A DNA stretch of 64,000 bases from the NCBI RefSeq assembly GCF_964355755.1, contig NC_092670.1, forward strand, positions 4,764,201 to 4,828,200, in the 5' to 3' direction. Within the stretch, counting starts at the first letter, position 1, and each line of letters starts with the position of its first letter. A program made the position numbers and the translations under genes. Shown one piece after another: positions 12,283-61,019 of this stretch. The notes beneath the pieces are model-generated. The model was not told the origin of the DNA. It did not search any database and saw nothing but the letters and a program-made list of their open reading frames with translations. Origin of the DNA: Antedon mediterranea. Lineage: Eukaryota > Animalia > Echinodermata.

Positions 12283-12888
12283 ATGTTGCCGATAGGTGTA
12301 ATCTTAAGTATGCTATATATAGCAGTTGCGAACGGTATGCCACAGTATACTGCTGCCATCGGTTGTGAATTTAAACATAATTTTTCTTACAATGGAACAC
12401 TTGAGGAAATCATGTTGGACAAAAATAATTATAAACTAAATTGCTTATCAAAAGAAAACAATTGTTCTCTAACTCATCATGAAGGAATCATCGTTCTAAC
12501 GATTTATCCTGTGACAACCAAGACTGGAGGAGTTTACACATTACGGCGAAATACGTCTGTCGGCGCTGTAGAGGACATTGGTAAAAAGTTCACGATTAGT
12601 GTCAATAACAACATCGCAGGTTTGATTATGGAGCCTACAAGTCCACCACTAGGTATCCTGACTACCATACACAAAACTTTACCTGATACAACCATGGAAT
12701 CTTTACCTGATGCAACCATACCGGAATCGTTTCCTGGTACAACCTTGAAGGTGGAACCTAATTCATATCAAGGCAACTTTGATACTGTTAACAATATTGG
12801 CATAGGCCTAGCTGTAACTTCATGTACAATTTGGTGCTTAGTGCTTTGTATAGGCGTTGTTATTATTTGCAAGCTAAATAGATTATAG
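12283..12888 (+). CDS. Type I membrane protein with one atypical Ig-like domain (cluster copy 1), 201 aa
   Basis: Signal peptide MLPIGVILSMLYIAVANG; family motif YTAAIGC...LNCLSKENNCSLTHHEG...GGVYTL...FTISVNN; Thr/Pro-rich stalk; TM IGIGLAVTSCTIWCLVLCIGVVII; very short tail; splice acceptor immediately 5' of the ATG. Confidence 0.85.
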   Translation: MLPIGVILSMLYIAVANGMPQYTAAIGCEFKHNFSYNGTLEEIMLDKNNYKLNCLSKENNCSLTHHEGIIVLTIYPVTTKTGGVYTLRRNTSVGAVEDIGKKFTISVNNNIAGLIMEPTSPPLGILTTIHKTLPDTTMESLPDATIPESFPGTTLKVEPNSYQGNFDTVNNIGIGLAVTSCTIWCLVLCIGVVIICKLNRL

Positions 12889-13204
12889 ATGCAACTTGTT
12901 GATCTGCATACATCATCGACACATCTTGTGTATTCGTTCTCCAATTAACATTTTTTTTTTATATTGCTACTTTATTTTTTATATATATTTTTTTTAATTA
13001 ATTCATTTCCAAAAACACACTTAGTGCTTTGTATAGGCGTTGTTATTATTTGCAAGCTAAATAGATTATAGATGCAACTTGTTGATCTGCATACATCATC
13101 GACAAATCTTGTGTATTCGTTCTCCAATTAACATTTTTTTTTATATTGCTACTTTATGTTTTATATATTTATTTTTTTTAAATTAATTCATTTCCAAAAA
13201 CACA
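12837..13204 (+). repeat. Tandem duplication of about 183 bp covering the end of copy 1 and its 3' flank
   Basis: 12837-13019 is repeated near-identically at 13020-13204. Confidence 0.93.
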
Positions 13205-14050
13205 ACGCGCCACCAGCTGTGGCAACAAGACAAAAAGCAAACAAAAAAAGGTTCTAAACAAGAAAACAAACAAAAAACAATCAAGCAACAATTTATATAA
13301 ATCATGAGTAGTTTTGGCAGACTATATACTGCTAAATGTTTCCACTTTAGGTTATAGGCATGCATATTATCATTTTCAATAATTCTTTTAACAATGACTT
13401 TAAATTTTTTTAAATACAGTGGGTCTTCTGAAATGTTACAGTTGAATATAAATCTTTTAGCTATCAAAATTAGCCTTGTATTTGATGCATCTAAAAAATG
13501 ACATTTTCCGATACCAAAACATATATTAACATTGTTTAAAATTAAATCGTAGTCAATGTTTATTTTTTTACAAAGGTTTTAAAGGACTTACAGAACAATT
13601 GAACTTTTACACAAAATTAAAAAATAAATGTGTCAAGGTTTGAATTTCTTTGTTGCAAAAGTGACATGTAGGTGAATCTATTTTGTGTATTTTATAGAGG
13701 AAACTTTTTGTTGCTATTCTTCTATGAAGAAATTTGAACTGGAAATCCTTTAGTTTACAATTTATAGTACAACTATGCATCTCATGAATACAGTTTCCCA
13801 TTCAAATTGTTTTACATTCAACAATGTAAGTTTTCTTCCCATTTTTGCATAACTATAGGTATACCAATTTTCATTTCCCTTCTATGGTTTGTTTATACTT
13901 CGATTTGAAGTTCGCAATTTTTTTAATTTACTGTTTTCACGAGTATTATCATATGTATTTTGCTGTTCTATGTTTCTATTTTTTTAGGAATAGATATTAA
14001 CTGATACAAGACCTTATTTTAGATCATCCTCTGGTTCTCTTACTGCACTT
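13200..14050 (-). mobile_element. Degraded L1/Tx1-like LINE ORF2 3' end
   Basis: KLKDFQFKFLHRRIATKSFLYKIHKIDSPTCHFCNKEIQTLTHLFF is the zf-RVT-type CxxC..H motif; continues IAKRFIFNC...LKWK. Confidence 0.8.
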
Positions 14051-15787: not shown

Positions 15788-18453
15788 TAGTCCAGTCAAA
15801 AATCACCCTCACCATGGTATAAGAACGTACCCTAATAAAATTTCATCCGTAGGTTCTACGTATATAGGTAATAACATTTCTTGATGTTGCGTCTTGCAAA
15901 ACTTGGGATTTTACGAGAAAATTAGACTTTTATACCCAATTTATAACCGCCTCATGTATTATTGTGTACAGCGAATGCGACGAAGCGTGACTGAAATTAC
16001 GAGACGCCGTTAGCGCCCGTTGAAAAATGCATTAACAAAGCTAAAAACCTACAAAACTAATAGTTTATACAATGATTTAAATATAGTTTACAATAAATTG
16101 TATAATAAAATACATAACATATAGAGAAAACTCAAATATAAACTAAAATATTTACAGATATGTGTTTAAAAATGTACAAATCAAAATGGCCTTCCATAAA
16201 ATAAAGTGCGCCCTCACGAGTCATACTTTTATCGGACTTGTATGGAATGGTTTTACAAGGCATTAATATACGAAACCCGATGCGATTTGTTAGTTATTGC
16301 CTCTGCAAGAGGCAGAATATTATATTTTCACAAATATATTTCTATTTTTTATCATGGAAAAAAGGATTGTATATATTTAAACACATTACAACCTCCAGTC
16401 TACCATCATGATGGATTAAGTGAATTGCGCCGTATTGTATATCTGCTAAAGCGTAATGATCTCCTAGTTAGGGCCTATCTACCTAGTTTTATTCTGGACA
16501 TTCTTTTTTTCACAGCATTACTTGCGTGGATATCACAATGCATTGTATATTCGCGATTATAGTCAATGTTAATTTGAGTGAGAATCATTTTTATATGACA
16601 GTCCATTTCGCGTATACGATTTAAATGAATAAAGTCGTCTGAAATATTTTCTTATTGGTTATCCGCAACAAAGTTAATCCTTGTGATTGTTAGTTTTGTT
16701 TAAGTTTCTTTGAATTGATTCATCCATATCGTATGATGTGTGAGACAATTTCGTCTTTTAGAAAATGTAATCCTGCCACCGAATATTCTTTATGTTTGAG
16801 ACGTCTGACGGATAACTTTGTTATTCTTTTATGTTTAATAACTAATCTTCATCTTCACTTTTTGGGACAATAGCCTACATCTTTTAAGTTTAAAACGTCA
16901 TTTATAAGCAATTGAATAAGCCAACAAATTAAACTACAGTGTTCTTCCAAGCTTTATAAATATTATTCAAATTCATTAAAATGCGTCGGACTCGGCGGAA
17001 AACAATATTTGAAATAAATGCATATAAAAAGTTTTTTGTGGACTTTACTTTCTCGTCCCAAGTTAGAACTTTCAGGTCAGGCCGTGGAGGTGAACCAATC
17101 GTTTATGACATGCTTTTGTGTATAAAATGTCCAATAATAATTATCATTGTAGGACTACTCTCCACCAAAAAAACTTTATAATGTATTTATTACGTCACGT
17201 CTTAAAAAAAGGAGAATTGGGTAATACAGTATGTTGTCGTTTCTCGCGAATCTTACATCACACTCCCACATCTCACTCTCTTTTATTTAGTGAAATGTGA
17301 ATGGTGGAAAAACGGGAAAATACGTTAACTTTAGAATACTTTGAATTCTGGAAGACGACTTCGAACTTAAAGAATCGTCATGAATGACGTTTATTGGCTC
17401 AAACTTCACACATCGGTACGATGTGGAGGCCAGACGGATTCAGAGAGGATCAAACCGGCAACTCCTCCTCATTGGCAGTGGGGGAAGTGGTTGGTGGTGG
17501 CGGGTGAAAAGGGAAAATGAAAAATGTTGATTTAGACGAATCCCGACCAGCCCCTTTGATACGCTCTAAATAATTGTAGGAAAGTGAAAGGCCTACTTGA
17601 GGTAGTATCTTCGTATAGGCCTACGCGTAATTGATTATCCTTAAATGATTGGTTCTTACTCTAATTAAGATTATAATCGCGAATGGCAGTTCAAAATATG
17701 CAATGCATTGTGATATCCACGCAAGGAATGCTGTGGAAACAAAAATGTCCAAAATAAAACCAGCAGAACTAGTAAATCATTACGCTCCAGCAGATATACA
17801 AATATACACTTTATCCATCATGATGGTATACTGGAGGTTGTAATGTGTTTAAATATATACAATCCTTTTTTCCATGATAAAAAATATAAATAAATTTGTG
17901 AAAATAAAATATTCTGCCTCTTGCGTAAAAAAAAGGCAATTACTAATAAACCGCATCGGGTTTCGTACATTTATGCCTTGTATAACCATTCATTATACAA
18001 GTCCGATAAAAGTATGACTCATGAGGGCGCACTTTATTTTATGGAAGGCCATTTTGATTTGTACATTTTTAAACACATATCTGTAAATATTTTAGTTTAT
18101 ATTTGAGTTTTCTCTATATGTTATGTATTTTATTATACAATTTATTGTAAACTATATTTAAATCATTGTATAAACTATTAGTTTTGTAGGTTTTTAGCTT
18201 TGTTAATGCATTTTTCAACGGGCGCTAACGGCGTCTCGTAATTTCAGTCACGCTTCGTCGCATTCGCTGTACACAATAATACGACATGAGGTGGTTATAA
18301 ATTAGGTATAAAAGTCTAATTTTCTCGTAAAATCCCAAGTTTTGCAAGACGCAACATCAAGAAATGTTATTACCTATATACATAGAACCTACGGGTGAAA
18401 TTTTATTAGGGTACGTTCTTATACCATGGTGAGGGTGATTTTTGACTGGACTA
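15788..18453. mobile_element. Non-autonomous DNA transposon with TIRs of about 630 bp (Academ-like)
   Basis: 15788-~16420 is the reverse complement of ~17805-18453. Ends are TAGTCCAGTC...GACTGGACTA with 3-bp TSD TAG on both sides. No transposase ORF. Confidence 0.85.
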
Positions 18454-19326
18454 TAGGCCTAAACATTTTATTTTGTATGTTAGTGTGTTGATTAGAGGAT
18501 GTTGTTATAGCAATAAGGCTCAACTCCACCTCTCAGTGGGCTAGAATAGAATATGAACCTGTGGGCCTATGCGCGTGGAGCAATGTACCCCCGAATGTAC
18601 CACAAACGATCTCAAGCTATAATAGGCCTACACATGCCGAGAATCTCGGAGATCATTGATCATGATTTTTTATTTTGGGATTTAATCTTATGGCAAAACA
18701 CAATGGCTATAAAAAAAACTTTACCTTACAATTTGTAGATTTATAACATTTTTAAATATTTTAAATTATAAAGCAGTAATTGATCTTGTCACCCACTACA
18801 TTGTCCACCCAACCAATTAATACCCCGTCCCTCTTACTACCTCTTGGGTATGTAGACCTACACAATGTTACGAAGTTTCTTAAATTAAGAGATAAAATGA
18901 TCAAAATTGCTTGTCATACCACCGGCCGATTTTATAGATGACTCATATTAATTCGCGCATCATCGAACAAGGATTACGAAATTTATTATTTATAGGCATA
19001 AAAAAACCCGCCGTAAATTCCAACTTACTATTTATTGTTACCCCATGCATTTTCTTTATAGTACATTTCTTCACGTAGGCCTACGGTACGTTATATTGGC
19101 CACAGTTCTAACATTGAGTTATTGATAAGTAATATTGAGGTAAGTATGTATTTGTTTCCTTATGCTAATATAGCTATGTAAGAGGTTTTTCAGTAAAACA
19201 GGTAGCACAAGTGCCTCATGTCTTGAAGTGTCTGCTGCACCTTCCCGTTTGGTTTGTATACAAGTGTAGGCCTACTCCTTCCTATAAACTTGTTCGTGTC
19301 GAACGTCGTAGGCCCACTCATACGCG

Positions 19327-20910
19327 TTAAGCCTGTTTTCCTGTCGACGTTATTCGACGCTATCGTTAACAAAAATCGGCGATCTTCTACGTAAACATTA
19401 ACATTTTAACGATTTACAGGAAAAGGTACTTTTTTAACTAACGACGACGATACAAAATGTCGGCGATTTACAGGAAAAGGTGTAATAATCGACGGTAACC
19501 GACGCTACAAGTCGCGATCGTTGACAATCGCAAGAGTTGAATCCAGTTCAACTCTAGCGATATCGCAACGCTAAAACGTAAGAACTGACCAATCATCATG
19601 GCGATACAGCAAATTGATGGCAAATTCTGCTTACTACATTTATTTTTGTTGCATCGCGGCGCGGTCAAAGCTATGCCTAGCCTTACCAAAGTTACTATAA
19701 AATGATGTTCCGGAAAGTAAGTGCGGGAATATTAGGTAGGTCAAGTCTTCAGCGTAGTCCAAAATTCTATTTGGACTAGGATAGGCCTACTGAGAACGAA
19801 GAACCATCAGTATAGAGATATTAGTATGCCTTAAGCCTGTTTTCCTGTCGACGTTAGTCGACGCTATCATCGTTAATCGTTAAAAGTTCAACGACGAACG
19901 TTTGAAAACGTCGACAGGAAAACAGGCTTAAACGATCGTCTTTATGCCTGTTTTCCTGTCGACGTTAGTAGACGCTATCGTCGTTGATCGTTAAAAGTTC
20001 AACGACGATCGTTTGAAACAATCAAGTTGAAATGATAACGATAGCGATTACCTTTTCCTGTAAATCGTTAACATGGTGTAATAATCGACGGTGATCGACG
20101 CTACAAGTCGCGATCGTTGACAATCGCAAGAGTTGAATCCAGATCAACTCTAGCGATATCGCAACGCTAAAACGTAAGAACTGACCAATCATCATGGCGA
20201 TACAGCACATGACGTCACATAATTGATGGCAACTTCTGCTGACTACATTTATTTTTGTTGCATCGCGGCGAGGTCAAAGCTAGGCCTAGCCTTAATACCA
20301 AAGTTACTATAAAATGATGTTCCGGAAAGTAGGCGCGGGGATATTAGGTAGGTCAAAGTCTTCAGCCTAGTCCAAAATGCTATTTGGACTAGGATAGGCC
20401 TACTGAAAACGAAGAACCATCAGTATAGAGATATTAGTATGCCTAGGCCCACGTGTCCTACACTGTGAGCCTACTGCTAGAGGCAGGGGAGTCCTCTATT
20501 CATTTTTGCGCGTTACGACGACGTCGAGAAAGAAGACCGGAGTTAGGCCTAGCTTTGACCGCGCCGCGATGCAACAAAAATAAAATGTAATCAGGAGAAT
20601 TTGCCCTCAATTATGTGACGTCATGTACTGTATCGCCATGATGATTGGTCAGTTCTTACGTTTTAGCGTTGCGATATCGCTAGAGTTGAACTGGATTCAA
20701 CTCTTGCGATTGTCAACGATCGCGACTTGCAGCGTCGATTACCGTCGATTATTACACCTTTTCCTGTAAATCGCCGACATTTTGTAGTGTCGTCGTTAGT
20801 TAAAAAAGTCCCTTTTCCTGTAAATCGTTAAAATGTCTATGTTTACGTTGAAGATCGCCGATTTTTGTTAACGATAGCGTCGAATAACGTCGACAGGAAA
20901 ACAGGCTTAA
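19327..20910. mobile_element. Harbinger-like palindromic element with nested copies of its own family
   Basis: Inverted arms of about 350 bp starting TTAAGCCTGTTTTCCTGTCGACG; mini-copy at 19831-19931; further start at 19942; internal duplication ~19480-19830 vs ~20080-20445. Confidence 0.85.
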
Positions 20911-21190
20911 CTTGTTCAACGTAGAATCTGTCCCGCTCCCGATTTTTCTTTTCGTACATTATTCTTACGTCACACCTTATGAATAATGAATATTCATGTT
21001 TATTTTGTGACGTTTCATGAAGGGTCTCCAACGAACTTATGTACGAAAAAAATATCGCGTCCCGCTCAGCCGCCCGTCCGCTCCGAATGGTCATAAGCAA
21101 TAACATAGACTCGATGTTTGTTTTCTGCTTATCGTTAACCGTTTCCTCCCGTCTGTATTGGCCTTAACAGTACCTCATTTTTTTGTAGTT

Positions 21191-21829
21191 ATGATGATAA
21201 TGATAGGAGCATTGATGTTTAGCTTTTTGTGCGTCACATCTGCAAGCAGCCCAATATCACAACACAATGCTACACTCGGATGTCCAATGAAACTGAATGT
21301 TTCCTACACTGGAATACTACAGCAGGGAGAAATGTTTATGGTTGATCAAAACAAAGTGAAAATATATTGCTCTGAAGAAGAACGCATTTGCAATCTAACC
21401 AAACATGAAGGAAAGATTTATATAACGTTTTTTACTGTGACGAACGACACCGAAGGAACGTACAACCTGATTTGTAGGGATACTACCGGGGTTGTGAATG
21501 AACAGTCATTCAAGATTGTTGTTAATAACATTAACAACGGCACATGTACGAATAGTAACGAGCAGAAGCTTTCACAAATACGCCACTTACTAGGCACAAC
21601 CACACAGCAATCTCTTTTGAGTACAACCATGAATGATTTTACCCCTAGTTTAGATCATCTAGTCAACTCGCAAACAGCAAACAATGTTGGTAAAATAGTT
21701 GTTACTGTGTGTGTAGGCCTAATTGTAATTATGTTATTCCTATTAATATTATTTTTAAAACGGGTTATTTACAAAAAGAAAACTGACTCATCTGATGATA
21801 AATACCGTTCATCATCGGTAAATGTCTAA
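21191..21829 (+). CDS. Type I membrane protein with one atypical Ig-like domain (cluster copy 2), 212 aa
   Basis: Acceptor TTTTGTAG ends 21188, ATG at 21191; signal peptide; HNATLGC...IYCSEEERICNLTKHEGK...EGTYNLIC...FKIVVNN; TM IVVTVCVGLIVIMLFLLILFL; basic tail ending SVNV. Confidence 0.88.
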   Translation: MMIMIGALMFSFLCVTSASSPISQHNATLGCPMKLNVSYTGILQQGEMFMVDQNKVKIYCSEEERICNLTKHEGKIYITFFTVTNDTEGTYNLICRDTTGVVNEQSFKIVVNNINNGTCTNSNEQKLSQIRHLLGTTTQQSLLSTTMNDFTPSLDHLVNSQTANNVGKIVVTVCVGLIVIMLFLLILFLKRVIYKKKTDSSDDKYRSSSVNV

Positions 21830-23515: not shown

Positions 23516-25546
23516 GAAAACATGTGATTTACGTATTTAGAAACATCAAACATTGTAAAGAAGAGTGATAGGCCCAATTGTGTTCTTTTTTTCTTCGAAG
23601 ACGGACGCACTTTCTTACAATGTGTTATTTTGCAACTTTCAACTGCGTTTAGCGGTACGGTAAGTAGGCCTATAAATAATAGCAATGCCTACTATAATAT
23701 ATTTTTGTTATTTGAGGCTGTATTAGCCCTGGTTACAATATAGTAAGTGTTCTTGTTCGATGAGTGTTGTCGACATATTATAAGCCTAATTAACAACACC
23801 TTATAAATGCCTCCTTGGATTAACATATACACTCATTTGCATAATAGTAGTGTTGTATTTTGCAATTATTATTTAAGAGCTGATTTTCATATATTTAATG
23901 AAATTGATATTTAAATGGTGGTTTTTCATTTTATAAGCATTTTGTTTCTTGAATTTTTCTATTTTCTTTGTTTAAATCAGTTATTTCTAATTCGTTGTCA
24001 AGTTGTCATTTTCAGAGTAATATGGTGGGACCAAACCCACACAACTATTCACCCCCTTACTCTCCCCGATGCCTACTTAACTTGGAACATTCCTCCTGAG
24101 GTGGGTCTTCCAAGGAAAGTCAATTTAATTTAATCAGTCATCATCCTTCCTGTCCCCTTAATATAAATATATGTTTTGTAGTTAAGTTAGATAGTTTGGG
24201 TATTGATTCTCAAGACTATCAGTCAGAATCACTACATTTTCACATTGTTGTTATAATCTCACTGTTGATTGAATAAGTATTATATTTTGTACATTGAATA
24301 ATGTTGTGCCATCGTTATTGTCTTGGCCCTCGACACAACTACAGTTACATTGTCATATTAGGTCTATTAATGGTTTCTGATATTGGGCGAGTATATACTC
24401 GAACTAAATTGCCCAGAAGGAATTGAAATAATGTATTACACCGGCACCTTTTCAACTCAACAATGAAATTCAATATTTAACAAACAATGTTTTTTGACCA
24501 AAACGGGTTTTGACGGTATTAATTCATGCTACTACTTACTATAACACTGATTTGTGACCGTGGCTGCAATATTCATTATAATTTTCTCATAATTTTATTT
24601 GACAATGCTTAAGAATCATCTGAGCGTAAGAGATTAGCGAGGAATTTCATTATAGGAAATTCCTAATTCCTAATATAATACATATCAGGATCATGATGAT
24701 ACACCCCTGTCCGCTAAAACAAACAAACAAAGCAATGTATGCTTCCGTGGTTATTACATCATTATCATCATCATCGATATTTTGGGGAGAGTGGGTATTT
24801 TCCAAAGATTTATTTAAATTTTATAAAATGTAGGCAGGCTGCAGAGTTCTTTCGTTGTTCAAGCACTATACAAATTTAAGAAGCAACATGTTAGCTACGA
24901 TTTTATCTATGTTTTACTGACGTTGTAAGTACAATATAATTTATTAAAATACAACGCATTACCTGATGCTGATCGGGCATTGTGGTCGTTGCTGTATAAG
25001 TGATTGGCTCTAGGCCTATATTAAAACGTATTTCTGTTACTTCAGTTGGGCAAGCATTCTTGTTATAGTCTTCTATATAGTCACGTATCGTAACTAAGTA
25101 CTGGGTAACGTGAAGAGCACATCATGAATTACGATTGTATCTAACGGATTGCGAGATAGCTGTTATAGTTCTGTATTAACAAAGTCACAAAATAGAGCGT
25201 TCGAACCCCGTAAATGACATGCCATTTGTCTACACACAGTGTTCGACATTAGCCAATTGTCAATTCTTACCGCTCGTTATGTATGAGCTAATTATGTTCA
25301 GGTATAGAAGAAATATAGGCTAAATAATGAACAATTTATGTTTATGTTCTGCATCACTATGCGCTGTCATCGACAATGTATGTATACTCGGTACACTTTA
25401 GGAAATCTGTGAGAATGATTGTATATTAACAAATATTACGCCATCTTAATGGTTACGGCATGTTATCTTATTAAACGTCATTTTGCGGTTGCGATTATTA
25501 TTGACTTGGTAATACTTAGAACATGATTACAAAATGGAATGCTCAT

Positions 25547-26011
25547 TAAAGCTTGGTTCCCATTAGAACGTAACGCAAGGACGTAAACGCAACGCAAGCG
25601 TTTTAACCAATGACAAGCGAAGTTATAGACAGTTAAGCGTGGTTCCCACTAGTGACGCAACGCAAGGACGTAACGCAACGCAAATGAATTGACCAATCAC
25701 AAGCGATGGCTTATTCGCTTGTGATTGCTAACTGTCTATAACTTCGCTTGTCATTGGTTAACACACTTGCGTTGCGTTTACGTCCTTGCGTTGCGTTCTA
25801 GTGGGAATCAAGCTTTAGCACAAGCGAATAAGCCATCGCTTGTGATTGGTCAATTCACTTGCGTTGCCGTTACGTCCTTGTGTTGCGTCGCTAGTGGGAA
25901 CCACGCTTAAGCGTGGTTCCCACTAGCGACGCAACGTAACGCAATCTACGCAACGTAAGAAAATGCCATTCTAATAATTGTGTTTGCCCCGCTTTCGTGA
26001 AATCAAACCTG
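25547..26011. mobile_element. Self-nested Harbinger-like MITE cluster (duplicated at 30194-30764)
   Basis: TIRs AAGC(T/G)TGGTTCCCACTAG; an inverted copy is inserted at TTA (25633-25817) inside another copy; a third copy abuts at TTAA 25907. Confidence 0.85.
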
Positions 26012-26195
26012 CGATGTTTGGCTCTAGGCCTATATAAAAACATTAGCCAATTGTTAATTCTTACCGCTCGTTATGTATGAGCTAATTATGTTCAGGTATA
26101 GAAGAAATATAGGCTAAATAATGAACAATTTATGTTTATGTTCTGCATCACTATGCGCTGTCATCGACAATGTATGTATATACTCGGTACACTTT

Positions 26196-29100
26196 TAGAC
26201 TAGGCTATGAATGAGGTAGGTGCCACCCGGAGAGGTAGAAATTCTCATATAACTTTTCTAGACCAGTTTTTTCTGGGGAATCCAAATATATTGGGTAAAC
26301 GGGCTGTAACCTGAGAACTTTCGCGTGAGGGCGCTTTTTTCAAAATGGCTGCCAGTTACAGTAGACTATGATATCTTGGCAACCACTGGTCATAGAGAGT
26401 TGATTTTGGTGTCAAATTATTCGGAATGTACATGTTCCTATTTGATGTAATAGAACATTTTGTCAGAAAATGGCCGGAAATACCTCTATTGACCTTTGAC
26501 CCAATATCTAACAGATATCATATCTCCGTAACTACTGGACACAGAAAGTTGTAATTGGTGTCAAACTCTCCAAAATATAGATGTTTATATTCAAACTATT
26601 AGAACATTATCTGTAAAAATGACCGGAAATAACGTTACTGACCTTTGACCCAAAATGAAAGACATTTCTCCTATCTGATCACGTTAATCCTGTCAATTAA
26701 TTCATTTTGTGCCAATTGGAGGTTGACATTCTCATATTATTTTCTTGACCAGTTTTTCATGTGCAATCCGAGTAATATGAGATAAATAAGCCATAACAAG
26801 GCCAAGAATTTAATTCTTTTACTACATACATGCTTCCCTTTAGTGTTTCAGTCTGTATGTCGTGTATTAATCTTCAAGATCGCTCACATCACTGCAATCT
26901 GAAAAGTCTTCATATTCATTATGTGTAAACAGTTCCTGGACATCAGTGGGCATCACTGTCTCAATCCATTTAGGCTCCATTTGTTCGTTCCATCCATTGT
27001 GTGTACTGTTGTTGACAAAATCATTGACGTCTGCTGATTGCTATTCTTTAGTAATGAAGTTTGCTCTAAGTATATGAAACTCAAGGGTCTGCTGACATAG
27101 TGGCAGTAATGATATATCTGTAATCTTGTTGTGTCTGGAAAACTTTCTGTTGAAGATATCATATCTTGCTTGATTTACACTTTTCCCCTTCACTCCATAC
27201 AATGGTGAAACATACTCTTCAAGTTCCTCATACAACTCTTTTGATGGAACATCTGACACTCCAAGGTTGCAGAATGTGTCAACACATTTTGTTTGATTCC
27301 AGAAGCTTCCAGCAGGTACATTTTCCTTTCCGAACGAAAGCGGAGTTATACTTGTTACCTGTGAAAGCATGGAATCCAATAAGGGATGATTTCTGCGCTT
27401 TTGTTAAATCAATGTCACTCAATTTCAGTACATTTCGGTATTTCCCAGTGTTTGTATCAATAATTACCCTCTGCCCATCATCAATGAAATGAGATAGTGA
27501 AATGACTGGAATGTCAAAGTCTCCAGAATGGGAACGAATTATTGCTACGCCTTGATTGTTATTTGTTAAAGCATGCTTTGCATGCAGGATGACTTTCGTG
27601 TCGGCTTCTTCTTGACTACTATTAAGCTCCGGAACCAATACAACATCTCAGTTAGTAACGTAGATGCATTCTTTGTACGATGAAAAGTAGATAACATCAC
27701 TCCTCATATCTGTTAGAATGCTTTCTTTCTTTGACACTAGTACACAGCGAATAAGCTCAATCAATCTGGTCTTGTTTTTGCCGTTGGCAAGGAAATTGTT
27801 AAAATCACGGGGCAACTTTGATATTTTTGAGCTTACAATTACTTTTGGTGCAATACCGCGTCTGTTTCTCGCAGTGCTCGACCAGGATCCATAACATCAT
27901 CTCACTTTATTTTCGAATAGTGGGAAGAAACTCGAAATCAAGGCAAATGGGAAAGTAAGAGTAATATAAGCTAATCGGGATGTTTTAGGAAAGCTTCTTG
28001 CCACCTCAACAAAGCTTGGTAGAATAATTGACTTTAAGAAAGCCTTTGAGTATCCACTTACCCCTGTCCCGCTAAGCCTTGCTAATGCAGATGGGACAAG
28101 ACGAACAACTCAGAAAATTGTCCTAATGGAAATTCTCATCGAAAGTTCAACAGATGTTATAGATCCTGGTCGGGCACTGCCAGCAAAGGCTACTGTCATT
28201 GCCTATGTTGTTGACTTGATGGCATTAATCAGAACATTTACATCTTACCCTGATACGTACGAGGATCTTGTAGCAAAGGTTTTCAACAGCATCCCTAAAG
28301 GATACAAGCGTGTTGATATTGTTACCGATGCATACCTACCAAAAAGCATTAAGTCTGTTGAGAGAAACATACGCGGTATTGCACCAAAAGTAATTGTAAG
28401 CTCAACAATATCAAAGTTGGCCCGTGATTTCAACAATTTCCTTGCCAACGGCGAGAACAAGACCAGATTGATTGAGCTTATTCGCTGTGTACTAGTGTCA
28501 AAGAAAGAAAGCATTCTAACAGATATGAGGAGTGATGTTATCTACTTTTCATCGTACAAAGAATACATCTACGTTACTAACTAAGATGTTGTATTGGTTC
28601 CGGAGCTTAATAGTAGCCGGAAGAAGAAGCCTACACGAAAGTCATCCTGCATGCAAAGCATGCTTTAACAAATAACAATCAAGGCGTAGCAATAATTCGT
28701 TCCCATTCTGGAGACATTGATATTCCAGTCATTGCACTATCTAGTTTCATAGATGATGGGCAGAGGGTAATTATTGATACAAACACTGGGAAATACCGAA
28801 AGGTACTGAAATTGAGTGACATTGATTTAACAAAAGCGCAGAAATCATCCCTTATTGGATTCCATGCTTTCACAGGTAACGATTATAACTCCGCTTTCTT
28901 TCGGAAAGGAAAACGTACCTGCTGGAAGCTTCTGGAATCAAAAGCAAAATTTGTTGACACATTCTGCAACCTTGGAGTGTCAGATGTTCCATCAAAAGAG
29001 TTGTATGAGGAATTTGAAGAGTATGTTTCACTATTGTATGGAGTGAAGGGGAAAAGTGTAAATCAACCAAGATATGATATCTTCAACAGAAAGTTTTCCA

Positions 29101-30992: not shown

Positions 30993-31880
30993 ATGATGAT
31001 GAAGCCAGTTCTATATTACATGTTCGTGTGCCAAAGCGTTTTTGTAGTTACCAAAGCTGAACATCATAGGGATAATTTTACTGCAGTGGTTGAAACACAT
31101 TTTGAAGCAAAACACAGCTTCGGTCATGTTCCTACAAATGAATTTAACACCTCAGTTATAAAAGACGGATATAGATATACTGACGGTGACTTAAAAATAT
31201 CTTTAACTGATACCAAAACATTGTTGTTAACATATACATTACCCCGAGTGAAGAACACCGACTATGGGGAGTATATGATTATCCTGCAGGGCCTCAATAA
31301 CCATTTTACATATGACTTCTTACTTAGTGTTGTTAAAGAGGCAAGAACACCCGAAAATAATCCACCACAATACAACGCTACGCTTAGATGTGACTTAAAA
31401 GTCGATTTTCTTTGCAATGGTATATCCGAGATCAATCTTGTTCGAGAAAGTAACGTAATCAATTGTGCGGTGTCAACAGCAAATTGTAATATCACTTATC
31501 ACGAAGGAAAGGCAGTTTTAATTTTTTTTAGCGTGGCAAATGAGACTGAAGGCAATTATTTACTCCGATGTGCTTCAAATAGCAGTGATTATTACTATTA
31601 TAAGTTTAAGATCGTGGTAAACAACAGCTCACCGTGTGATCAACTTAGGCCTACATTAACACGTTCACCACCGCCGCTCAGTACATATAAACAAGGAAAT
31701 CATTCAAGTAATCAGATCGATTCCCACATGTCAATTGCAAAGAATACTGATGTTATACTAGTTAGTGTTGTTGCCTTGTGTTGTCTACTCATCACATGCC
31801 TTATAGGGTTTATTATCATTTACAAAAAGCGAATGTGTAGGCCTAAACATACTAATGAGCCTACACCTGAACAAGTTTGA
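30993..31880 (+). CDS. Type I membrane protein with two Ig-like domains (cluster copy 3), 295 aa
   Basis: Acceptor TTTTGCAG ends 30989; signal peptide; Cys-free domain 1 with DYGEY; domain 2 YNATLRC..FLC..INCAVSTANC..HEGK..EGNYLLRC..FKIVVNNSSPC; TM VILVSVVALCCLLITCLIGFIIIY; tail ends TPEQV. Confidence 0.9.
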   Translation: MMMKPVLYYMFVCQSVFVVTKAEHHRDNFTAVVETHFEAKHSFGHVPTNEFNTSVIKDGYRYTDGDLKISLTDTKTLLLTYTLPRVKNTDYGEYMIILQGLNNHFTYDFLLSVVKEARTPENNPPQYNATLRCDLKVDFLCNGISEINLVRESNVINCAVSTANCNITYHEGKAVLIFFSVANETEGNYLLRCASNSSDYYYYKFKIVVNNSSPCDQLRPTLTRSPPPLSTYKQGNHSSNQIDSHMSIAKNTDVILVSVVALCCLLITCLIGFIIIYKKRMCRPKHTNEPTPEQV

Positions 31881-34080: not shown

Positions 34081-34784
34081 TGAGGGGGATATCCATGATC
34101 TACGCTAACACATTTCCAATGCAAACATCGTATCGCGGATTAATCATTTAATATTCTGATTTATATTCTTTCATGTAACGAAATGCACTCGGAAAGGAGT
34201 TCAATAGAGTAGTTATTGGATATCATGTGACCCACAATCCTTCAATTGGACAATAATCTACTAAAGTGTGTTATAATAGAGTTATAACAGTAACGTGATA
34301 CCGTGTGATTTTTCAGATAGAATTCTTGTATTAAACGGAAAGAAAAATATTGTATTTTAACACCTTATTTTCTGAATTAAGTCAATCCTGTTTTTGATAA
34401 AAATAAAAATAAATTTTCTTTAATATTATTGTTTAATGTAAATAAATGTCATGTACAGTGATTTAATAAAGCACTATTTACATTATATTTTTGTTGCTTA
34501 TAATTAATTTAATTAGAAAGTCAATAGCTTATCCTTCCTAATAACATAACTTCGATATAAGAAAAGTAGAATATGTAAATAATTTCACGTCAAGTAATGT
34601 AAAATGAGTGCGGTACCCATGTAGTCCCCTCCCCCTCTTCATATCTTCCCTCGCTTACGGTACAGTAAACATATTGACTCAACATTTTTAAATTGTGTCT
34701 AAAAATACTTACAATGTACAATAGACACCCAAATAAGACCAAAAAGAGCGGGTGCTTGTCAATTTGGTTACCAATTGTCTTAAG

Positions 34785-38229: not shown

Positions 38230-38688
38230 ATGTTGCCAATAGGCCTATATATGATACTGTTGCAGATAATATATATTATAATATTCTCAGACGCAAGATT
38301 GATTAAAAATGTCACTGAAGGGACTAACAGCAGAGATGTATTAAACACACACTCACCCACACGCTCTGTACAGGCACATTATCAAGCTACGATTGGATGT
38401 GAATTTAAACTTTATTTTTCCTGCACTGGAACACATGAGGATGTATTTCTGGTTCGGGTTCTAGATGATACAAAAATAAATTGTTCATTAGCAACAAACA
38501 ATTGTATTCAGACTAATCATAAAGGCAACACGGTGATAACGTTTCTGAATGTGACACTTGAAAACGCAGGCAATTTTACTTTTCGATGCCACGGAGCAAG
38601 TTCACCTCATCATTACATTTCAACCTTTGAGGTATTTGTTGGTGAGGGCAAATGTAGTGATCATCATGACAATTACAAAGTACTATAA
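38230..38688 (+). CDS. Ig-like receptor cluster copy 4; premature stop before the TM (secreted form or pseudogene), 152 aa
   Basis: Signal peptide; YQATIGC..FSC..INCSLATNNC..HKG..AGNFTFRC..FEVFVGEGKC. TAA at 38686 is followed in frame by AQNDATTKSNSIITSAAIFLIALAVTIGHP* (to 38781). Confidence 0.8.
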   Translation: MLPIGLYMILLQIIYIIIFSDARLIKNVTEGTNSRDVLNTHSPTRSVQAHYQATIGCEFKLYFSCTGTHEDVFLVRVLDDTKINCSLATNNCIQTNHKGNTVITFLNVTLENAGNFTFRCHGASSPHHYISTFEVFVGEGKCSDHHDNYKVL

Positions 38689-38779
38689 GCCCAAAACGAC
38701 GCTACAACTAAATCAAACAGCATCATTACTTCTGCAGCTATATTTCTTATTGCACTAGCTGTTACGATAGGTCATCCAT

Positions 38780-38868
38780 AAACAACAAGGCATAATACAT
38801 TGCTGCAATCGCGTGCTGAAGTTAGGGTTTACCGACCAACCGACCGACCGACATAGTGAGCTGTAGAA
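38780..38868. mobile_element. Short interspersed-repeat fragment with (CCGA)n, Helentron/HINE-like
   Basis: AACAACAAGG...ACCGACCAACCGACCGACCGACATAGTGAGCTGTAGA directly after the TM-coding region of copy 4. Confidence 0.4.
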
Positions 38869-45408: not shown

Positions 45409-46866
45409 GGAAAATCCCAATATCATAATTATAGTAGGCACTGAGGTGCCATTAAACGGATAGGCTACTCTCATTATTGGCTGCAATGTATACAACAAGG
45501 GAGGTTTACCCGCTCAACAATAACTGTGTGGACGTCCGCAGGTAAGTAATATTATTTTTAGGCCTACAAACCCAAATTCCAACGGAGTGTATAGGCTAAG
45601 CAGGCACATTACCGTACATAACTAAGCCTAACAGTCCCGCTAACAGTACATCTCGATCAAACAGTGGTGACATCGAAGCGTGGAAAGGGCTATGCTCCAC
45701 ATTGTTTTTCTTATTATCTTTTCCCGGTGGATTTTAGGAGATCAAAAACATTTTTTTTAATCATACATTTTTACAGTAAAACTTGTTCTCATACGACTCT
45801 CCGTTTAGGAGTTACGATTTTGTAATTAACATGGTGTCCGGAAATACTACAAACGCTATAAGATTTTGTTTTATTTAACGCTTGGCTGGTCCAAAAATAA
45901 ATACGCAATGACCCAAATACCCCCCCCCCCCTCCACCCCTCTTTGACAGATCCTGGCTACGGCCCTCGGGTCCTACTAGGCGCATAGGCGATCGCGAATA
46001 TAGGGTATAATATGGGGAATTCCCTAATATCGATCGGAGTCGGTGGTGCATGAAACGAAAAACAAACAATGGAATTTCCATATTATTTGTCATCGACATT
46101 GGATCGGTAATGGGTATTTTCCATTGCATATTAATAACTTGGTAAGTTAGTTATGTCGATCTTCATGGACCTCCAAGATTACTACAACCTGTTAATTTGC
46201 GATTTTAACTGCATTTGAAGACAATAAGTACAAAGTAACTAAATGATTATTCAACTACATAATTCGAATAAATCTGCAGCATGCATACAGTTCATGCTTT
46301 GCTGCTGTAATTTTTTTTAGGCGGATCTAAGATGATGTGGAGGGTGTGGCATGGGTTCCAAGAGCAAACCCGGCCCAGGGGTTTCAAGGGCCCATGTGGT
46401 GTGGGGGTCATTTCAATCAGTTTACTGGCACATAGGCCTAAATCTGATCAATTTCCGTTTGATTAGATAGTAGGGTATTATAAGTTTTAGGTCTTACTTT
46501 ACTTAATTAATACTATATCATAATTATTATTTATGAACAACTATTGAAGAAACTATATTAGAGATTGGGTGTTGTTGGACCTGGACCCGCCCCTGACGAA
46601 TTAAACAAACATATCTCAACTGTGAACAAATTCCTTGGGATTAATGATACGATTTTCTCTAGAATAATTAATATTGGTAGCAGTTTACATTACTCTGATT
46701 TCTACTGACAAATGTTCACGAAGATTGTTCAGAATATAATTATAATTGCTTAATATTGATCAGAGTTAGTGATGCGTGAAACAAAACAAAAAAACATTAA
46801 ACCAAAGGGAATTTCCATATTTTCTATTATTGTCATTGGTATTTTTTGGGTACAGTGGGATTTTCC
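45409..46866. promoter_or_regulatory. Cluster of NF-kB-like sites upstream of copy 5
   Basis: GGAAAATCCC 45409, GGGGAATTCCC 46014, TGGAATTTCC 46070, GGGTATTTTCC 46112, GGGAATTTCC 46807, GGGATTTTCC 46857; IRF-like GAAACGAAA 46052. Confidence 0.5.
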
Positions 46867-47407: not shown

Positions 47408-48319
47408 ATGATGTCAATAAGAATATATATTATGTTGGTGTGCCAATGCGTTTTTTTGACCCAAGCTGATAATTTTACTGCAGTAGTTGGAACTGTTTTT
47501 GAAGTAAGAACTAGCTTCAATGATACACTTATGGTTAACAACTATACCACCAGAGTTATAAGAAACAATAAATACACTGATGGTGACTTAGATATAACTT
47601 TAAATCATAACAATACTTGTTTAAAATACACATTACGCCAAGTGAAGAAAACCAACGATGGGAGATATAAGATCATCCTGAAAGACTTCAAAACTCATTT
47701 AAAATTTGAATTTTCACTCTCTGTCGAAGAGGCAAGAACTGACAATACCTCGGCTATCGAGTTGAAATCTACAAACACTTTTTCCACACATAACGCTGCT
47801 CTCAGATGTGAATTAAAAATCAATTTTCTTTGCAAGGAAATATCTGGTAAAGCAATCCTTGTTCGCGAAAATGACATAATAGACTGTGCTTTAACAACTA
47901 ATAATTGTAATATTACTTATTACGAAGAGAAAGCAGTGTTAACGTTTGTTAGTGTGACAAACGAGACTCAAGGCAAGTATTTACTCAAATGTGGTTCAAA
48001 TGGCGATACTTATAATTATCTTTATAAATTTAAGATCGTTGTCAACAACAGCTCGCCGTGTAGTTACCAACATACAGTAGGCCTACCCAATTCGTCACTG
48101 GAAATTGGTACAAACCAAACGGACAATTATTCAAGTAAGGATTTCGACTACTCCGACTCGCCTATTCAAAAGAATACGGTTATTATAATCGTATTCTTAG
48201 CTTTATGTTGTGTTGTCCTACTGGCTTTTATTATAGCAGCGGCTATTTACATTAAACGACGTAGGCATGACAAGCGCACTAATGATGTGCCTAAAAATGA
48301 AACTGGTACACAACTCTAG
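47408..48319 (+). CDS. Type I membrane protein with two Ig-like domains (cluster copy 5), 303 aa; closest paralog of copy 3
   Basis: Acceptor TTCTTGCAG ends 47398. Shares DNFTAVV, YTDGDL, EART, LRC.LK..FLC, NCNITY, YKFKIVVNNSSPC and ALCC with copy 3. TM present; tail ends GTQL; AATAAA at 48341. Confidence 0.9.
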   Translation: MMSIRIYIMLVCQCVFLTQADNFTAVVGTVFEVRTSFNDTLMVNNYTTRVIRNNKYTDGDLDITLNHNNTCLKYTLRQVKKTNDGRYKIILKDFKTHLKFEFSLSVEEARTDNTSAIELKSTNTFSTHNAALRCELKINFLCKEISGKAILVRENDIIDCALTTNNCNITYYEEKAVLTFVSVTNETQGKYLLKCGSNGDTYNYLYKFKIVVNNSSPCSYQHTVGLPNSSLEIGTNQTDNYSSKDFDYSDSPIQKNTVIIIVFLALCCVVLLAFIIAAAIYIKRRRHDKRTNDVPKNETGTQL

Positions 48320-50818: not shown

Positions 50819-50952
50819 GGTGACTGATTTTTTAATTGATACATATAAATAAATAGTAGTAATACTAATACAGTAGTTGTCACTATGGAATCGAAATATG
50901 AAATAATTAGTATCTTACGAATAGAGCCGTTTCAAATGATTATCGTACATAC

Positions 50953-52573: not shown

Positions 52574-53344
52574 TTAAACAACCCATACAGTACACCTGAA
52601 GCCTACACATAATGTTAATTTGGTTATTGTTTAGTGTAGGCCTTTAGCATGCAAATACTATTTAAACCGTTCTAGAATAATTTGTATTGAGTGGATGCTT
52701 ATTGACAGTGCTTTTAATAAAGAACCAATGTATGATGACAATGGCATTACAGTATTTTCTAAATTGTCAACAACAGTTAAATATTTGCTCAGGTAACACA
52801 GTTATACACGGGCACATGGGCTACTAAAAGACCGATCATCATCCACGCAAATTTCCTCCTGCAAACATTCCTGTATTAAAATAAGCATAATGACTATAAT
52901 AACCATTGTGAATCTAAGAGGTTGAACACAGGTATGTTAATACTTTATTAAAATGGGTTTTCCCATCTACGCTTTTGCACCGTTTTTGAAGTGGCGACGC
53001 GGACATTGACAACTGCCAACCAGCGAGTCATCCTATCATGCTACAGTATCGCGGATTGCTCATTACTACATGAGTTATATTCTTTGATATAACAAAAGAG
53101 TTCAATAGAGTTATAGTTACTGAATATCATGACTGTGACCCACAATCCTCCAATCTAATGACAATAATCTACTAAGGTTTGTTATAATATTTCATTATAA
53201 CAGTAGGCCTAACAGTTATATATCGTGATATTTTCAGATAGGATTCTTATATTATACGGACACAGGACCATATTTATTTTAACACCTTATTATCTGAATT
53301 ATATCTATCCCGTATAGGCCTACATTTTTTTGGATAAAATATAA

Positions 53345-57170: not shown

Positions 57171-60100
57171 TCCAATTTTTAATTGTTACATAGGACATCA
57201 CATTTTAAAGCTTTGTTTATAGTGATGCCCGATTCAATCAATCAATCAATATATAACTTTTGCTTAAAACCATGTTCAACTGTAGGCCGTTGCCAATATA
57301 CAGTAATCTCCCTAAACAATGCTACTTTTAATACTTACGATATTATATGTTTTCATCTTTTCCATTGATTGTAAACCTCTAACTAAACTTTCCAGTATTT
57401 TATTATTCAACTTCTGTTTCCAATAATAGTCAATATAAACAATTAATTTTTATTTTTATCATTACTGTAAATAATCATTGTATATATTTGATAATTTATA
57501 TTTATATTGGTCTTGTTTTTTTTGTTTGTAAAAATCTACTGTAATATTATACCTTATTGTGGTTACCATTATAACAAATGTACGATTGATTGAATAAAGT
57601 TCACATATAGTATTTCAAATTAATTAATTAAATTTTAGTATATCACCGGGCGGTTTAGAATTAATGTTCTTTGCCTAATGTGTTTATATAAATATGTAAT
57701 TTGAATTTGTGTATCCTTTCATTAGTTTTGTTTACAAAATATTTATTTTGATCAAACAATCAACTTATTTTAATGTTTTGATTTATTTTTTCCTATTTGT
57801 CAATTTAAATTTACTTCTTCCAATCATTTTCTCCTCTTACTTCACTTTGTTCCAATCGACATACTTAAAAGACTACCAAGTTTTACATTTTAATTATTAT
57901 TCTTATGTTATTGTTACAAATGTACACCCATTACCCATTACATTTATCTTAGTATTGGAGGAATTTTCATTTGGTGGGTTTGAAAGTAGGGAACAAGGCA
58001 CCAAATGTCATTACAACATTTTGCAATTGTAATGAAAATAATAAATATATATTTGAGTTGACAGTTTAATATTTGGTTTAGTTTGATACTGTTTTTATGT
58101 GGATATCTACTTATTTAAACATTACGATACAAAGTGATACATATTATTTAGTGTAGGTCTACATAAACAATGTCAGTACACCATGGAAGCCTTTAATATA
58201 CTGATGTTAGGCCTAACTACGAAGAAATTAATATTGAGATTCTATTTAATTATTAATCATTATTATAATATTTAACGATTATAAAGAAGGTCCTATCGCA
58301 CGAACACGTAAATTAATAATTCTCTATATAATTTGACAAATCATGTTACAAAAACAAGAACAGAACGCGTACCATTATTATACTTGTGTTATGTTTGCAT
58401 ATATCGTAATCCGTTTTTACCACAACCAAAGCCATGTATAATTTGTAATTGTGTGAACGCATGTTAAACGTTATATAAGTAGGTGATAATGTTCTCTCTC
58501 AGGTAACACGTAAATCAATACAAATTAACTATAAGAATACTCTGTAAATGACAATAACCCAAATCTGGTAATACGTAAACACTCTAGATTCTAGAAGATA
58601 TAAACTATAATTCGTTAAAATTAGAAAATCGGAAATTCCAATGGGAATAAGTACTAGTCTATACATAGATAATCTTATTTATTTATTGGGGGAATGGATT
58701 TTCCACAATATTGTTCCTGTTACTAGTAGGCCTAGTACTTATTTTTGTCCAGATTGTCACGAACTAACCATTATTTGCTTTTTTCTGACCAATGTAAGTA
58801 CAATCTATTTATAAACATTGACAATATATAGGCCTACAAATGCCAGTCTTCGAGTACGTGATTCGATTATGTAGGCAATGTAGAGATAGGGGAAAGCAAA
58901 TGTTAGGCAATGGCAAAATAACTGGGCCGAATAAGTTCGTTTCCTGCTTCACCTTAAGGGGCCTAATTCCGTCGTGTCAGAGCTCAGCCACCAAACGGCG
59001 TTCATGATTTCTTTTCAATACATTCATTGTTTGCATTGTTTCTTTTATAATACTTAGCTTTGGTATGTTTATCTTATGTTAAATACGTATCGAAGTACTG
59101 CCAAAACGACAGCTTACTATTATATTTATTTATCTATTTTCAAGATGCGATCCCTCACTCTTCATTTCCCGACTAATTTGACAGCTCCACTTCACATATT
59201 ATGAATATGAATAGGCCTAAACCATTTATCCATTATAACGATTTGAACTTACACCTTTTTATCGGCGGTACTCAATGACAATTGGTTCGTGTAAACAAAA
59301 CAAAATACACACACACAATACACCTTGAAATAAATGTATACAAATATACTATATTTGGATAATTTAATTTTTAACGCATTTTCGGCCGCGTATATTGAGT
59401 GTTGTGTGTCATATTTATAGTCACAGTAGTCAAATTACCTTCCCTGATAAAAAAATTATGATTGTAAAACCTGTATGGGACGGATGTGTCTGGTCTCTTC
59501 ATGTGGAAATGGAGAAATTGAAGATACTAAAGATTTTTTTTATATTAAAATTGTAACACTAAATGAAAGAATTACTGTAACCATCTTGCAAAATGATCTT
59601 ACACCCTGCAAAAATGATATATTTATGGATTCCCCATATTAGCAAAATGCTGAGTGATAATAGATAAATGGATATTCTGTTGCAATGAGGAATATCTCAT
59701 CATTTGTGTAAACGTTGCTTGGGAGAAAAACGATCAGAGCTAAAAATCAATTTTTATTGTCTTTCTATTGCCAGTTATTTATATTTTCATTCATTTTATC
59801 TTAACAATTTTAAATGAGCGGCAAACGTTGTTTTGATATCGAAACCAATCATCTTATGTAAGCATAATGATTGTAACTACCGTACTTTACACTGAATGGC
59901 GAACTCTATATTCAACTAATGCAAAACATTTAACATATTTATACAGGATTATACACAATCAAGTAGAAATATACCTGTTTTGCATTGTGGTCCTGTCGAC
60001 AAAAACGGATACAAATTTAAATACAATACAAATACAGTTAATAAAAATAGCAATAAAAAAAAAACAAACAAAAAAACATTATTTGCTTTATAACATGTAG

Positions 60101-60354
60101 GCCTATGTCAAAAGCGGAATAACTCTCTTCAGCCTAGTCTATACTAAACAGAGGATAGTGATACGAAAAAGTCGCTGTTTTGCCAATAATTTTACTTCTT
60201 GTATCCGAAAATGTGGAAAGGAAAGTTACTGTAGATTTACCAATTTTCTAAGCCTTTTGTAGATTAGCGCAATCATCGTATTGGGATTTTGCAAAATCCA
60301 TATCGAAATACTGAATATAATATTTATAAATTACTAATTTTTTTTAGTAGCGAG

Positions 60355-61019
60355 ATGTTGTCAGTAGGCTTATTTAAGAAGATATGCCAACAGGTACCAG
60401 TTATAGTGTGCCGAACTATTTTGCTATTCACATTCACAGACACTAAGCATATTGAAGATGTCACTGCACAAGCTCAATATCACGCTACAATTGGATGTGG
60501 ATTAACAATTGATCCGTTTCCCTGTACTGGAACATCTGGGGATGCATTTCTGGTTCGGGATGGAACAAAAATAGATTGTTCATTAACAAAAAACAAGTGT
60601 GCACTGACTAATCATGAAGGGAAAACGATGCTAACGTTTCTTACTTTGACACGCGAAAACGAAGGGAATTATACGTTTCGATGCAGTACGGATGACGCTA
60701 TTTACCCTTTTAAATTTGAGATATTTGTCGATAATGGACAGTGTATTGAGCATGCGACAACACGTACATGGCCGGTATTTGGTACAAAAAAGCAAGACAA
60801 CAAAGTGGTACAACACAAAGACAACACTACAGTCAAAACAAGCATTATTATTATTCATTCACTCATTCATTCATTCAATCTTTTATTTCTTCTGTTATAT
60901 GTCTTATTGTACTAACAGTGGGATATTATATCTATAAAAAAAGGACAGAAAGGCAAAGACAGAATACATCTCCTTCAATCGACACGGTAACATCAACACC
61001 GTTAACGGTATCCCAATAA
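60355..61019 (+). CDS. Ig-like receptor cluster copy 6; a 32-nt insertion frameshifts the TM (altered anchor or pseudogene)
   Basis: Acceptor/ATG context TTAG|TAGCGAGATG as in copy 4; YHATIGC..FPC..IDCSLTKNKC..HEGK..EGNYTFRC..FEIFVDNGQC. The reading frame stops at 60915. The ancestral TM and tail SSVICLIVLTVGYYIYKKR...VSQ* lie in another frame to 61019. Confidence 0.8.

Follow-up and report, generated by a model that had tools for sequence, protein, structure and literature searches.

A tandem cluster of putative single-coding-exon genes of predicted immunoglobulin type with an altered domain core in the feather star Antedon mediterranea

Analysis of a 64,000-nucleotide stretch of the Antedon mediterranea genome (contig NC_092670.1 of assembly GCF_964355755.1, positions 4,764,201 to 4,828,200; hereafter the window) revealed a tandem cluster of six paralogous genes, named A to F. 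They form a real, apparently undescribed crinoid family of the immunoglobulin superfamily (IgSF) that evolves by birth and death. The domain that they share is predicted to adopt an immunoglobulin (Ig) fold without the canonical core, and we consider the six genes likely to be an undescribed, fast-turning recognition family.

The six open reading frames (ORFs) were found head-to-tail on the + strand, starting at 12283, 21191, 30993, 38230, 47408 and 60355, exactly as in the preliminary description of this DNA (Table 1). All 15 pairs of products matched mutually by tblastn (E 1e-6 to 1e-65), and a domain of about 100 residues was shared at 28-61% identity, with eight invariant columns. A profile run over 2115 six-frame pieces found no seventh copy inside the window. 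All six products had been credited with a signal peptide, a stalk, a transmembrane (TM) segment and a tail, and each with two domains. The first layout was seen in four of them (A, B, C and E), the only intact type I membrane proteins of the six, D having a stop before the anchor and F a frameshift; two domains were present in C and E, and a single one in A, B, D and F. The motif reported as common to the family was recovered in a looser form, as A has no Cys after Y-x-L-x and D and F carry Phe in place of Leu. N-glycosylation sequons numbered 9 in C and 13 in E.

Table 1 Features of the window. Positions count from the first letter of the window; aa, amino acids; GPI, glycosylphosphatidylinositol.
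Feature	Position	Strand	Description
SNRNP40 (U5 snRNP 40 kDa)	300..8687	+	Complete, conserved multi-exon gene flanking the cluster, left window end
Gene A	12283..12888	+	201 aa: signal peptide, one Ig domain, Pro/Thr stalk, TM, 5-residue tail; both shifted cysteines lost
Gene B	21191..21829	+	212 aa: signal peptide, one Ig domain, stalk, TM, Val-ended tail; sister of A
Gene C	30993..31880	+	295 aa: signal peptide, Cys-free N-terminal domain (likely Ig), shared Ig domain, stalk, TM, Val-ended tail
Non-coding block between C and D	34130..34391	+	74% like 53046..53313
Gene D	38230..38688	+	152 aa: signal peptide, one Ig domain, stop TAA 38686-38688 in the window allele
In-frame remnant behind D stop	38689..38781	+	Short stalk, hydrophobic C-terminus (putative membrane anchor or GPI-signal-like), without cytoplasmic tail
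Gene E	47408..48319	+	303 aa: sister of C, likewise with two domains; TM; T-Q-L as the last tail residues
Non-coding block between E and F	53046..53313	+	Copy of 34130..34391 block
Gene F	60355..60915	+	186 aa: one Ig domain, sister of D; out of frame from TM start
(TCAT)n-rich insert shifting the F frame	60850..60884	+	35 nt; borders inferred by comparison with D
Original F TM and basic, Ser/Thr-rich tail	60885..61019	+	Preserved in another frame than the ORF

Comparison of the six whole proteins with Pfam gave no family above its cut-off, and matches to TMEM154, Orf78 and Vps36 were rejected as TM-driven or chance. With the profile of the shared domain, all of the PDB sequences that matched at E<=10 (21/21) belonged to the IgSF, the best with an E-value of 6e-4. 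An AlphaFold2 model of E, built from the six-row alignment, had pLDDT (predicted local distance difference test) values of 64-84 across residues 121-220; the TM segment was moderately confident too, and the model was poor elsewhere. Residues 121-216 were modelled, at moderate confidence, as a beta-sandwich of eight strands (A', B, C, C', D, E, F and G), followed only by a low-confidence stalk of 35-60 residues. The model matched NKp44, TLT-1 and obscurin-like-1 with a Z score of 11.1 and a root-mean-square deviation (rmsd) of 1.9-2.9 over 90-93 residues, I-set and V-set structures being tied, and Foldseek paired it with titin-type and adhesion Ig domains (best PDB-chain E-value 5e-5). In agreement with the earlier proposal of an Ig-type beta-sandwich, both the predicted fold and the profile matches thus pointed to the IgSF, and on this model the shared domain is an I-set-type Ig fold.

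The core of this domain departs from the canonical one. Alignment with a titin I-set domain, using a profile enlarged with the N-terminal domains of C and E and with a relative from the feather star Anneissia, placed the B-strand Cys opposite Phe, the C-strand Trp opposite Leu and the F-strand Cys opposite Leu. Across the family, Phe/Val, Leu/Met and Leu/Phe stand at the sites of the core Cys, Trp and Cys, and no Trp occurs in any Ig domain of the six, so that both the B-F disulfide and the C-strand Trp pin are missing. Other I-set features, aligned with titin, were kept: the Gly of the A'-B turn (4/6), a hydrophobic position in strand E and the G-x-Y tyrosine corner (5/6, with G-x-F in D). 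New cysteines were found two residues further along strands B and F: both in C, D, E and F, one in B and neither in A. Because the two are present together in C, D, E and F and lost together in A, the disulfide has likely shifted by two residues. We propose that this moved bond would replace the lost core, and that a bond within the C-x6-C loop and another from the A'-B turn to the stalk may help to do so. In the available part of their account of the Hydractinia Alr proteins, Huene et al. (PMC9546547) knew of no other V- or I-set domains without both the disulfide and the tryptophan, and Alr was still filed as IgSF. The Alr domains are described there as having hydrophobic residues in place of the Cys-Trp-Cys core and non-canonical disulfides, a likeness to the cluster in described features.

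Relatives were searched for in several collections. Two word-index searches of 5.8 billion proteins, covering products up to 531 amino acids, gave no match with C or with the six-way alignment. The six products, in nine start variants, were all absent from a collection of 15 billion proteins, which does contain the neighbouring SNRNP40 protein, and no relatives were found by phage tblastn or among viral and metagenome contigs. A HMMER scan of 1.84 billion representatives returned 29 matches. The best single-domain match, and the only near-full-length one, was the Anneissia japonica protein XP_033124072.1 (LOC117122568; P0058), with 21.4 bits vs 15.0 for the next; its shuffled versions reached at most 11.2 bits (1696 of 2000 scored). 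Besides this protein, the matches inspected (12 of the 29 scanned with Pfam, 10 identified by name) were multi-repeat Ig or bacterial proteins scoring through summed partial stretches. An Atlas search with P0058 as query returned generic I-set/V-set clusters at 0.90-0.92.

The Anneissia protein, which is uncharacterised, resembles the cluster products in its signal peptide, two tandem I-set-type domains, stalk and TM segment; it keeps the G-C turn, has neither the C-strand Trp nor the F-strand Cys, and is the best match to both types of cluster domain. It differs from them in being only 21-27% identical, in keeping the B-strand Cys, in having neither the C-x6-C loop nor the shifted cysteine pair, and in its longer, repetitive tail. 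Since the B-strand Cys is kept while the Trp and the F-strand Cys are gone, this protein looks like an intermediate state in the loss of the core. The N-terminal domain of C and E also found its best match among the 29 representatives in an Anneissia Ig domain (10.7 bits vs 3.3; shuffles at most 5.9, 1450 of 2000 scored) and is likely an Ig domain as well. It gave no PDB match and no profile-profile match; a clitocypin match of its profile at E ~1 was rejected as chance. The restriction of the family to one lineage, suggested in the preliminary description, held in these searches, and a second feather star as the top match, even at such low identity, argues for a crinoid family. No description of it was found in the literature searched; subscription papers and crinoid genome supplements lay outside that search and may list the genes.

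Each of the intact genes appears to be carried by one coding exon. The ORF is unbroken from the signal peptide through the tail in A, B, C and E, and an AG precedes all six ATGs by 2-9 nt (8, 2, 3, 8 or 5, 9 or 2, and 7 or 4 nt in A to F), in line with the splice acceptors reported just ahead of the start codons. The putative acceptors lie at 12274, 21188, 30989, 38221 or 38224, 47398, and 60347 or 60350. Under a pyrimidine-tract rule, which was chosen post hoc on sequences already inspected, 5 of the 6 cluster ATGs passed vs 16 of 1363 other + strand ATGs (Fisher p 3e-9). Together, the unbroken ORFs and the acceptor-like sites support the single coding exon proposed before. In their AG-to-ATG distance, the close paralogs D and F are one base apart, and in a further, D-like paralog described below the interval is about four bases longer; the exon upstream is therefore probably untranslated. 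We judged it unlikely that coding exons further upstream extend the product into a longer spliced protein, the N-termini being signal-like and the acceptor phase not conserved.

In our proposal, an untranslated first exon would be spliced onto each coding exon. A donor scan, CpG content and pairwise alignment revealed no convincing first exon common to the paralogs, the candidates being at 10807, 19140 and 45542. The last of these is a strong donor 1.9 kb 5' of E, in a stretch (45400-45550) with CCAAT-like boxes upstream that is a candidate untranslated first exon. Because no first exons common to the paralogs were found, we also entertain a bolder variant, still compatible with the sequence, in which the six coding exons would be alternative last exons spliced from one common untranslated first exon. 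In mouse, Ig domains are enriched in multi-exon genes, according to the part of the source available (PMC8302217).

The gene tree grouped (A,B), (C,E) and (D,F), with support of 95-99 (DNA) and 90-96 (protein). Given these pairs, the gene order A-B-C-D-E-F and a non-coding block that is common to the C-D and E-F gaps at 74% identity, C and D were likely duplicated as a block into E and F. The two copies of the non-coding block are candidates for common regulatory or untranslated-exon sequence.

Sequencing runs provided further evidence of turnover. The region was present in five runs from two samples, and variants were compared on the contigs of four runs; run X1, guessed to be RNA, covered 30/30 bins including repeats and was treated as DNA. 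The variant figures for C and E rest on the best 40 of 346 variant rows, alleles below 85-88% identity falling outside the comparison. At position 38686, the stop of D in the window, 4/4 runs read C, giving a Gln codon and read-through into a hydrophobic end without a tail. The stop therefore marks an allele or an assembly error, and the loss is not fixed. In 2/4 runs, one per sample, D carried a 2-nt deletion at 38246, ahead of a second in-frame ATG. All four runs contained a D-like gene that is absent from the window; over about 454 nt it showed 50 differences and 10 gap letters. The insert that breaks F presumably resembles the 3' tail of a long interspersed nuclear element (LINE), and the X1 copy of F carried two replacements within a 30-nt loose end. 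In one sample, the contig depth over E and F was about half that over C and D; contig depth is not a copy number, and this is a weak hint of divergent or missing alleles. The earlier suggestion of birth-and-death turnover with broken and possibly soluble copies agreed with the D stop, the F insert, the extra D-like copy and the gene tree. A one-exon cassette would ease duplication and loss of whole genes, as well as switches from membrane to soluble forms.

Pairwise ratios of replacement to silent substitution rates (dN/dS) were 0.23-0.70 over all 15 pairs, several of them near saturation, and dS of the four intact ORFs was 0.75-0.84. For C and E, the bootstrapped ratio of replacement to silent differences (pN/pS) was 0.42 (95% interval 0.29-0.61), indicating purifying selection; within this pair, the membrane-distal domain was freer than the proximal one (0.86 vs 0.28, Fisher p 0.044). 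Judged by these ratios, the genes are maintained by selection and parts of them drift or diversify fast, with dN above dS in no pair.

The four intact tails (A, B, C and E) are 5-27 residues long and contain no Y-x-x-L/I/V/M/F motif, and the best TM windows hold no charged residue. Signalling through immunoreceptor tyrosine-based activation or inhibition motifs (ITAM or ITIM) or through adaptors is for these reasons not supported by the sequences. All four tails end in Val or Leu, that of E in T-Q-L. C-terminal ends of this type fit PDZ docking, and the intact tails may dock on PDZ scaffolds instead of signalling through tyrosines. Lacking ITAM, ITIM and charged TM residues, the products would engage ligands in the role of adhesion partner, co-receptor or decoy.

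We hold with about even confidence that the products serve recognition as variable surface molecules, whether as binding partners, as co-receptors or as soluble decoys, and that duplication and loss of the one-exon cassette renew them. The role of such a recognition family would probably be immune. Several observations weigh against this reading. The pN/pS intervals of D/F (0.76, 0.52-1.22) and A/B (0.77, 0.53-1.15) include 1, and no pair exceeded 1. D and the D-like paralog differed by 18 replacement and 7 silent changes among the variants listed (0.74), with no amino-acid excess. The alleles of C had at least 9 variant sites among those listed, 6 replacement and 3 silent (pN/pS 0.54, p 0.41 vs neutral); the polymorphism of C in the two samples, about 1% among the variants listed, was no higher than that of flanking DNA, and E contigs showed 0-1 differing sites from the window. 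The N-terminal domain of C and E had pLDDT below 50 both in the model of E and in a second fold of the C ectodomain with E, and the Anneissia protein is its only link to Ig. Finally, the tail ends and the missing tyrosine motifs suit adhesion molecules equally.

A cell-adhesion or wiring code, in which small one- and two-Ig proteins (membrane, GPI-like and secreted) would pair mutually to sort cells or neurites, is a possible alternative, which we hold tentatively. JAM/CTX, Dpr/DIP and ZIG proteins are systems of this kind. The I-set fold, the presence of NEGR1, JAM-A, Sidekick, DIP and ZIG-8 among the matches, the absence of ITAM and ITIM, the Val/Leu ends of all four intact tails and the purifying selection all agree with it. 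It is harder to reconcile with the 2/6 copies broken in the window haplotype, with the two different disabling variants of D, and with the lack of a close relative even among the annotated feather-star proteins in the database, which would be fast for a developmental code. Rapid divergence and lineage restriction would also be expected of gamete-surface recognition proteins of a broadcast spawner that diverge fast between species, and a single coding exon fits retroposed genes expressed in the germ line. With no dN/dS above 1 and many paralogs with segregating null-like alleles, this explanation is unlikely.

Among known systems, the top structural matches were the vertebrate TREM/CD300/NKp44 and CEACAM proteins (Z 9.6-11.1). 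These are small, clustered Ig receptors with membrane and soluble forms, which signal through ITIMs or charged-TM adaptors. The cluster products are only 10-14% identical to them, the scores were tied with those of titin-type I-set domains, and the vertebrate proteins keep the canonical core. Within the parts of the published accounts available, Hydractinia Alr resembles the cluster in that its single-pass IgSF genes are clustered, include pseudogenes and may give secreted forms, but has one exon per domain or TM, domains of the V- and I-set types with an Fn3-like region, six invariant cysteines, ITAM/ITIM tails and demonstrated roles in allorecognition (PMC9546547). Botryllus fester/FcoR genes are likewise described as IgSF clusters bounded by framework genes, with birth and death and duplication of gene pairs; they differ in being multi-exon, in head-to-head pairs, with ITIM/hemITAM tails and many alleles (PMC12582321). 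Sea urchin Toll-like receptors, also from an echinoderm, are single-exon receptors in tandem arrays with many pseudogenes, but are LRR-TIR proteins with a signalling domain and not Ig (PMC3367398, as far as available). The Biomphalaria PTC1/GRC and PTC2 clusters are, from the portion of the report at hand, lineage-specific single-pass membrane genes with copy-number variation and a proposed role in parasite matching; their ectodomains are Fn3, lectin or disordered, and a link to resistance has been shown genetically there (PMC13712769). In its general workings the Antedon cluster thus resembles other fast-turning clusters of IgSF or single-pass genes, but it lacks the features that define them, where these were tested.

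The preliminary description had listed the cluster as a candidate allorecognition locus. A determinant locus of the kind known from Hydractinia (Alr) or Botryllus (fester/FcoR), in which C+D and E+F would be duplicated pairs, would agree with the loss of the whole Ig core, as in the Alr domains (PMC9546547, in part), with a conserved framework gene adjoining the cluster and possible pairwise duplication, as in Botryllus (PMC12582321, in part), and with the halved contig depth over E-F in one sample, which weakly hints at divergent haplotypes. Nevertheless, the C alleles were about 1% apart, like flanking DNA, in two samples, from which rare divergent alleles could escape; there is no ITAM, ITIM or charged TM residue, no Fn3-like region and no exon-per-domain layout. 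An allorecognition locus of the Alr/fester type was therefore not supported, and we regard it as improbable. There is a small chance that the genes form a crinoid-specific self/non-self receptor complex. Its one-exon cassettes would carry a pin-less Ig domain that evolved independently, the second of its kind; one- and two-domain genes would duplicate as pairs, and haplotypes would differ in gene content and in membrane or soluble state. If true, this would give feather stars a first molecular entry point to allorecognition or parasite matching.

The one-exon, heavily glycosylated layout of signal peptide, Ig domain, stalk and TM segment is also that expected of captured viral Ig glycoprotein genes of the RL11, adenovirus E3 CR1 or EEHV vIgFam type, which would have gained a host untranslated exon and then been amplified (viral proteins compared from the available part of PMC3234252). 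B, and B only, weakly matched Pfam Adeno_E3_CR1 over its length (E 0.051, 13.8 bits vs a cut-off of 26), and Foldseek gave a slightly better E-value with viral Ig proteins (best 1e-6) than with PDB chains (5e-5). However, identity to the viral proteins was only 7-19% with a large whole-chain rmsd, CR1 gave stronger matches to ordinary titin-like proteins, no viral gene was found among the 145 longest other frames of the window, viral contigs contained no relative, GC content was host-like at 35-38% and the nearest relative is a feather-star protein. We consider viral capture very improbable. Least probable of all is that the genes are mostly silent, decaying copies: the window has broken copies of D and F, and the six products are absent from the 15-billion-protein collection that contains the SNRNP40 protein, but four ORFs, 201-303 codons long, have stayed intact even at dS of 0.75-0.84, pN/pS of C/E is below 1 and the splice acceptors are kept.

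The left end of the window is occupied by SNRNP40, which encodes the 40-kDa protein of the U5 small nuclear ribonucleoprotein. A 55-residue exon was 100% identical to an Antedon mediterranea RefSeq protein, and its vertebrate, amphioxus and brachiopod matches were 67-74% identical; the Anneissia japonica protein, in the same protein cluster, fitted the window less well than that of Antedon. The gene thus points to Antedon or a near feather star as the likely source of the DNA. An intron of this gene contains a 43-bp satellite of 19 near-identical copies (3937-4756). The remainder of the window consists of repeats and retroelement remnants, and a comparison of the 145 longest other frames with Pfam gave scores for WD40 and reverse-transcriptase families only. 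The 3' end of A, stop codon included, is part of a 183-bp tandem duplication (12837-13204). Upstream of B lie a fold-back element with 850-bp inverted arms (89%) and nested short inverted-repeat elements (15788-18453 and 19321-20911). Directly 5' of C, a mobile-element-like unit of about 5.4 kb (25246-30666) has inverted arms of 1.7 kb at 97%, direct copies of 624 bp at 98% and broken ORFs (27970-29123) without a Pfam match; it would fall within the 5' intron of C. Between C and D, a G-rich, strand-skewed tandem array has about 104 copies of a 15-bp unit (34836-36440), and two LINE-type remnants directly follow F (60938-61588, +; 61781-63930, -), the minus-strand one matching RVT_1. The palindrome TAGGCCTA occurred 51 times in the window vs 0.7 expected, with a CpG observed/expected ratio of 0.88; we take this word to be an echinoderm marker, and a literature search for it gave no confirmation. 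Rfam gave no match to the window at gathering score, and three matches to microRNA models in inverted repeats were far under the cut-off.

Crinoid immune and recognition genes are nearly undescribed. The cluster provides a second apparent case of V- or I-set domains without their core, here in a deuterostome and with a different, putative repair by a shifted disulfide. A whole Ig receptor on one coding exon is unusual and easily missed in annotation, as the absence of the six products from the protein collection illustrates. Being small and easy to clone, the genes are concrete candidates for assays of recognition in the class of echinoderms that branched off first.

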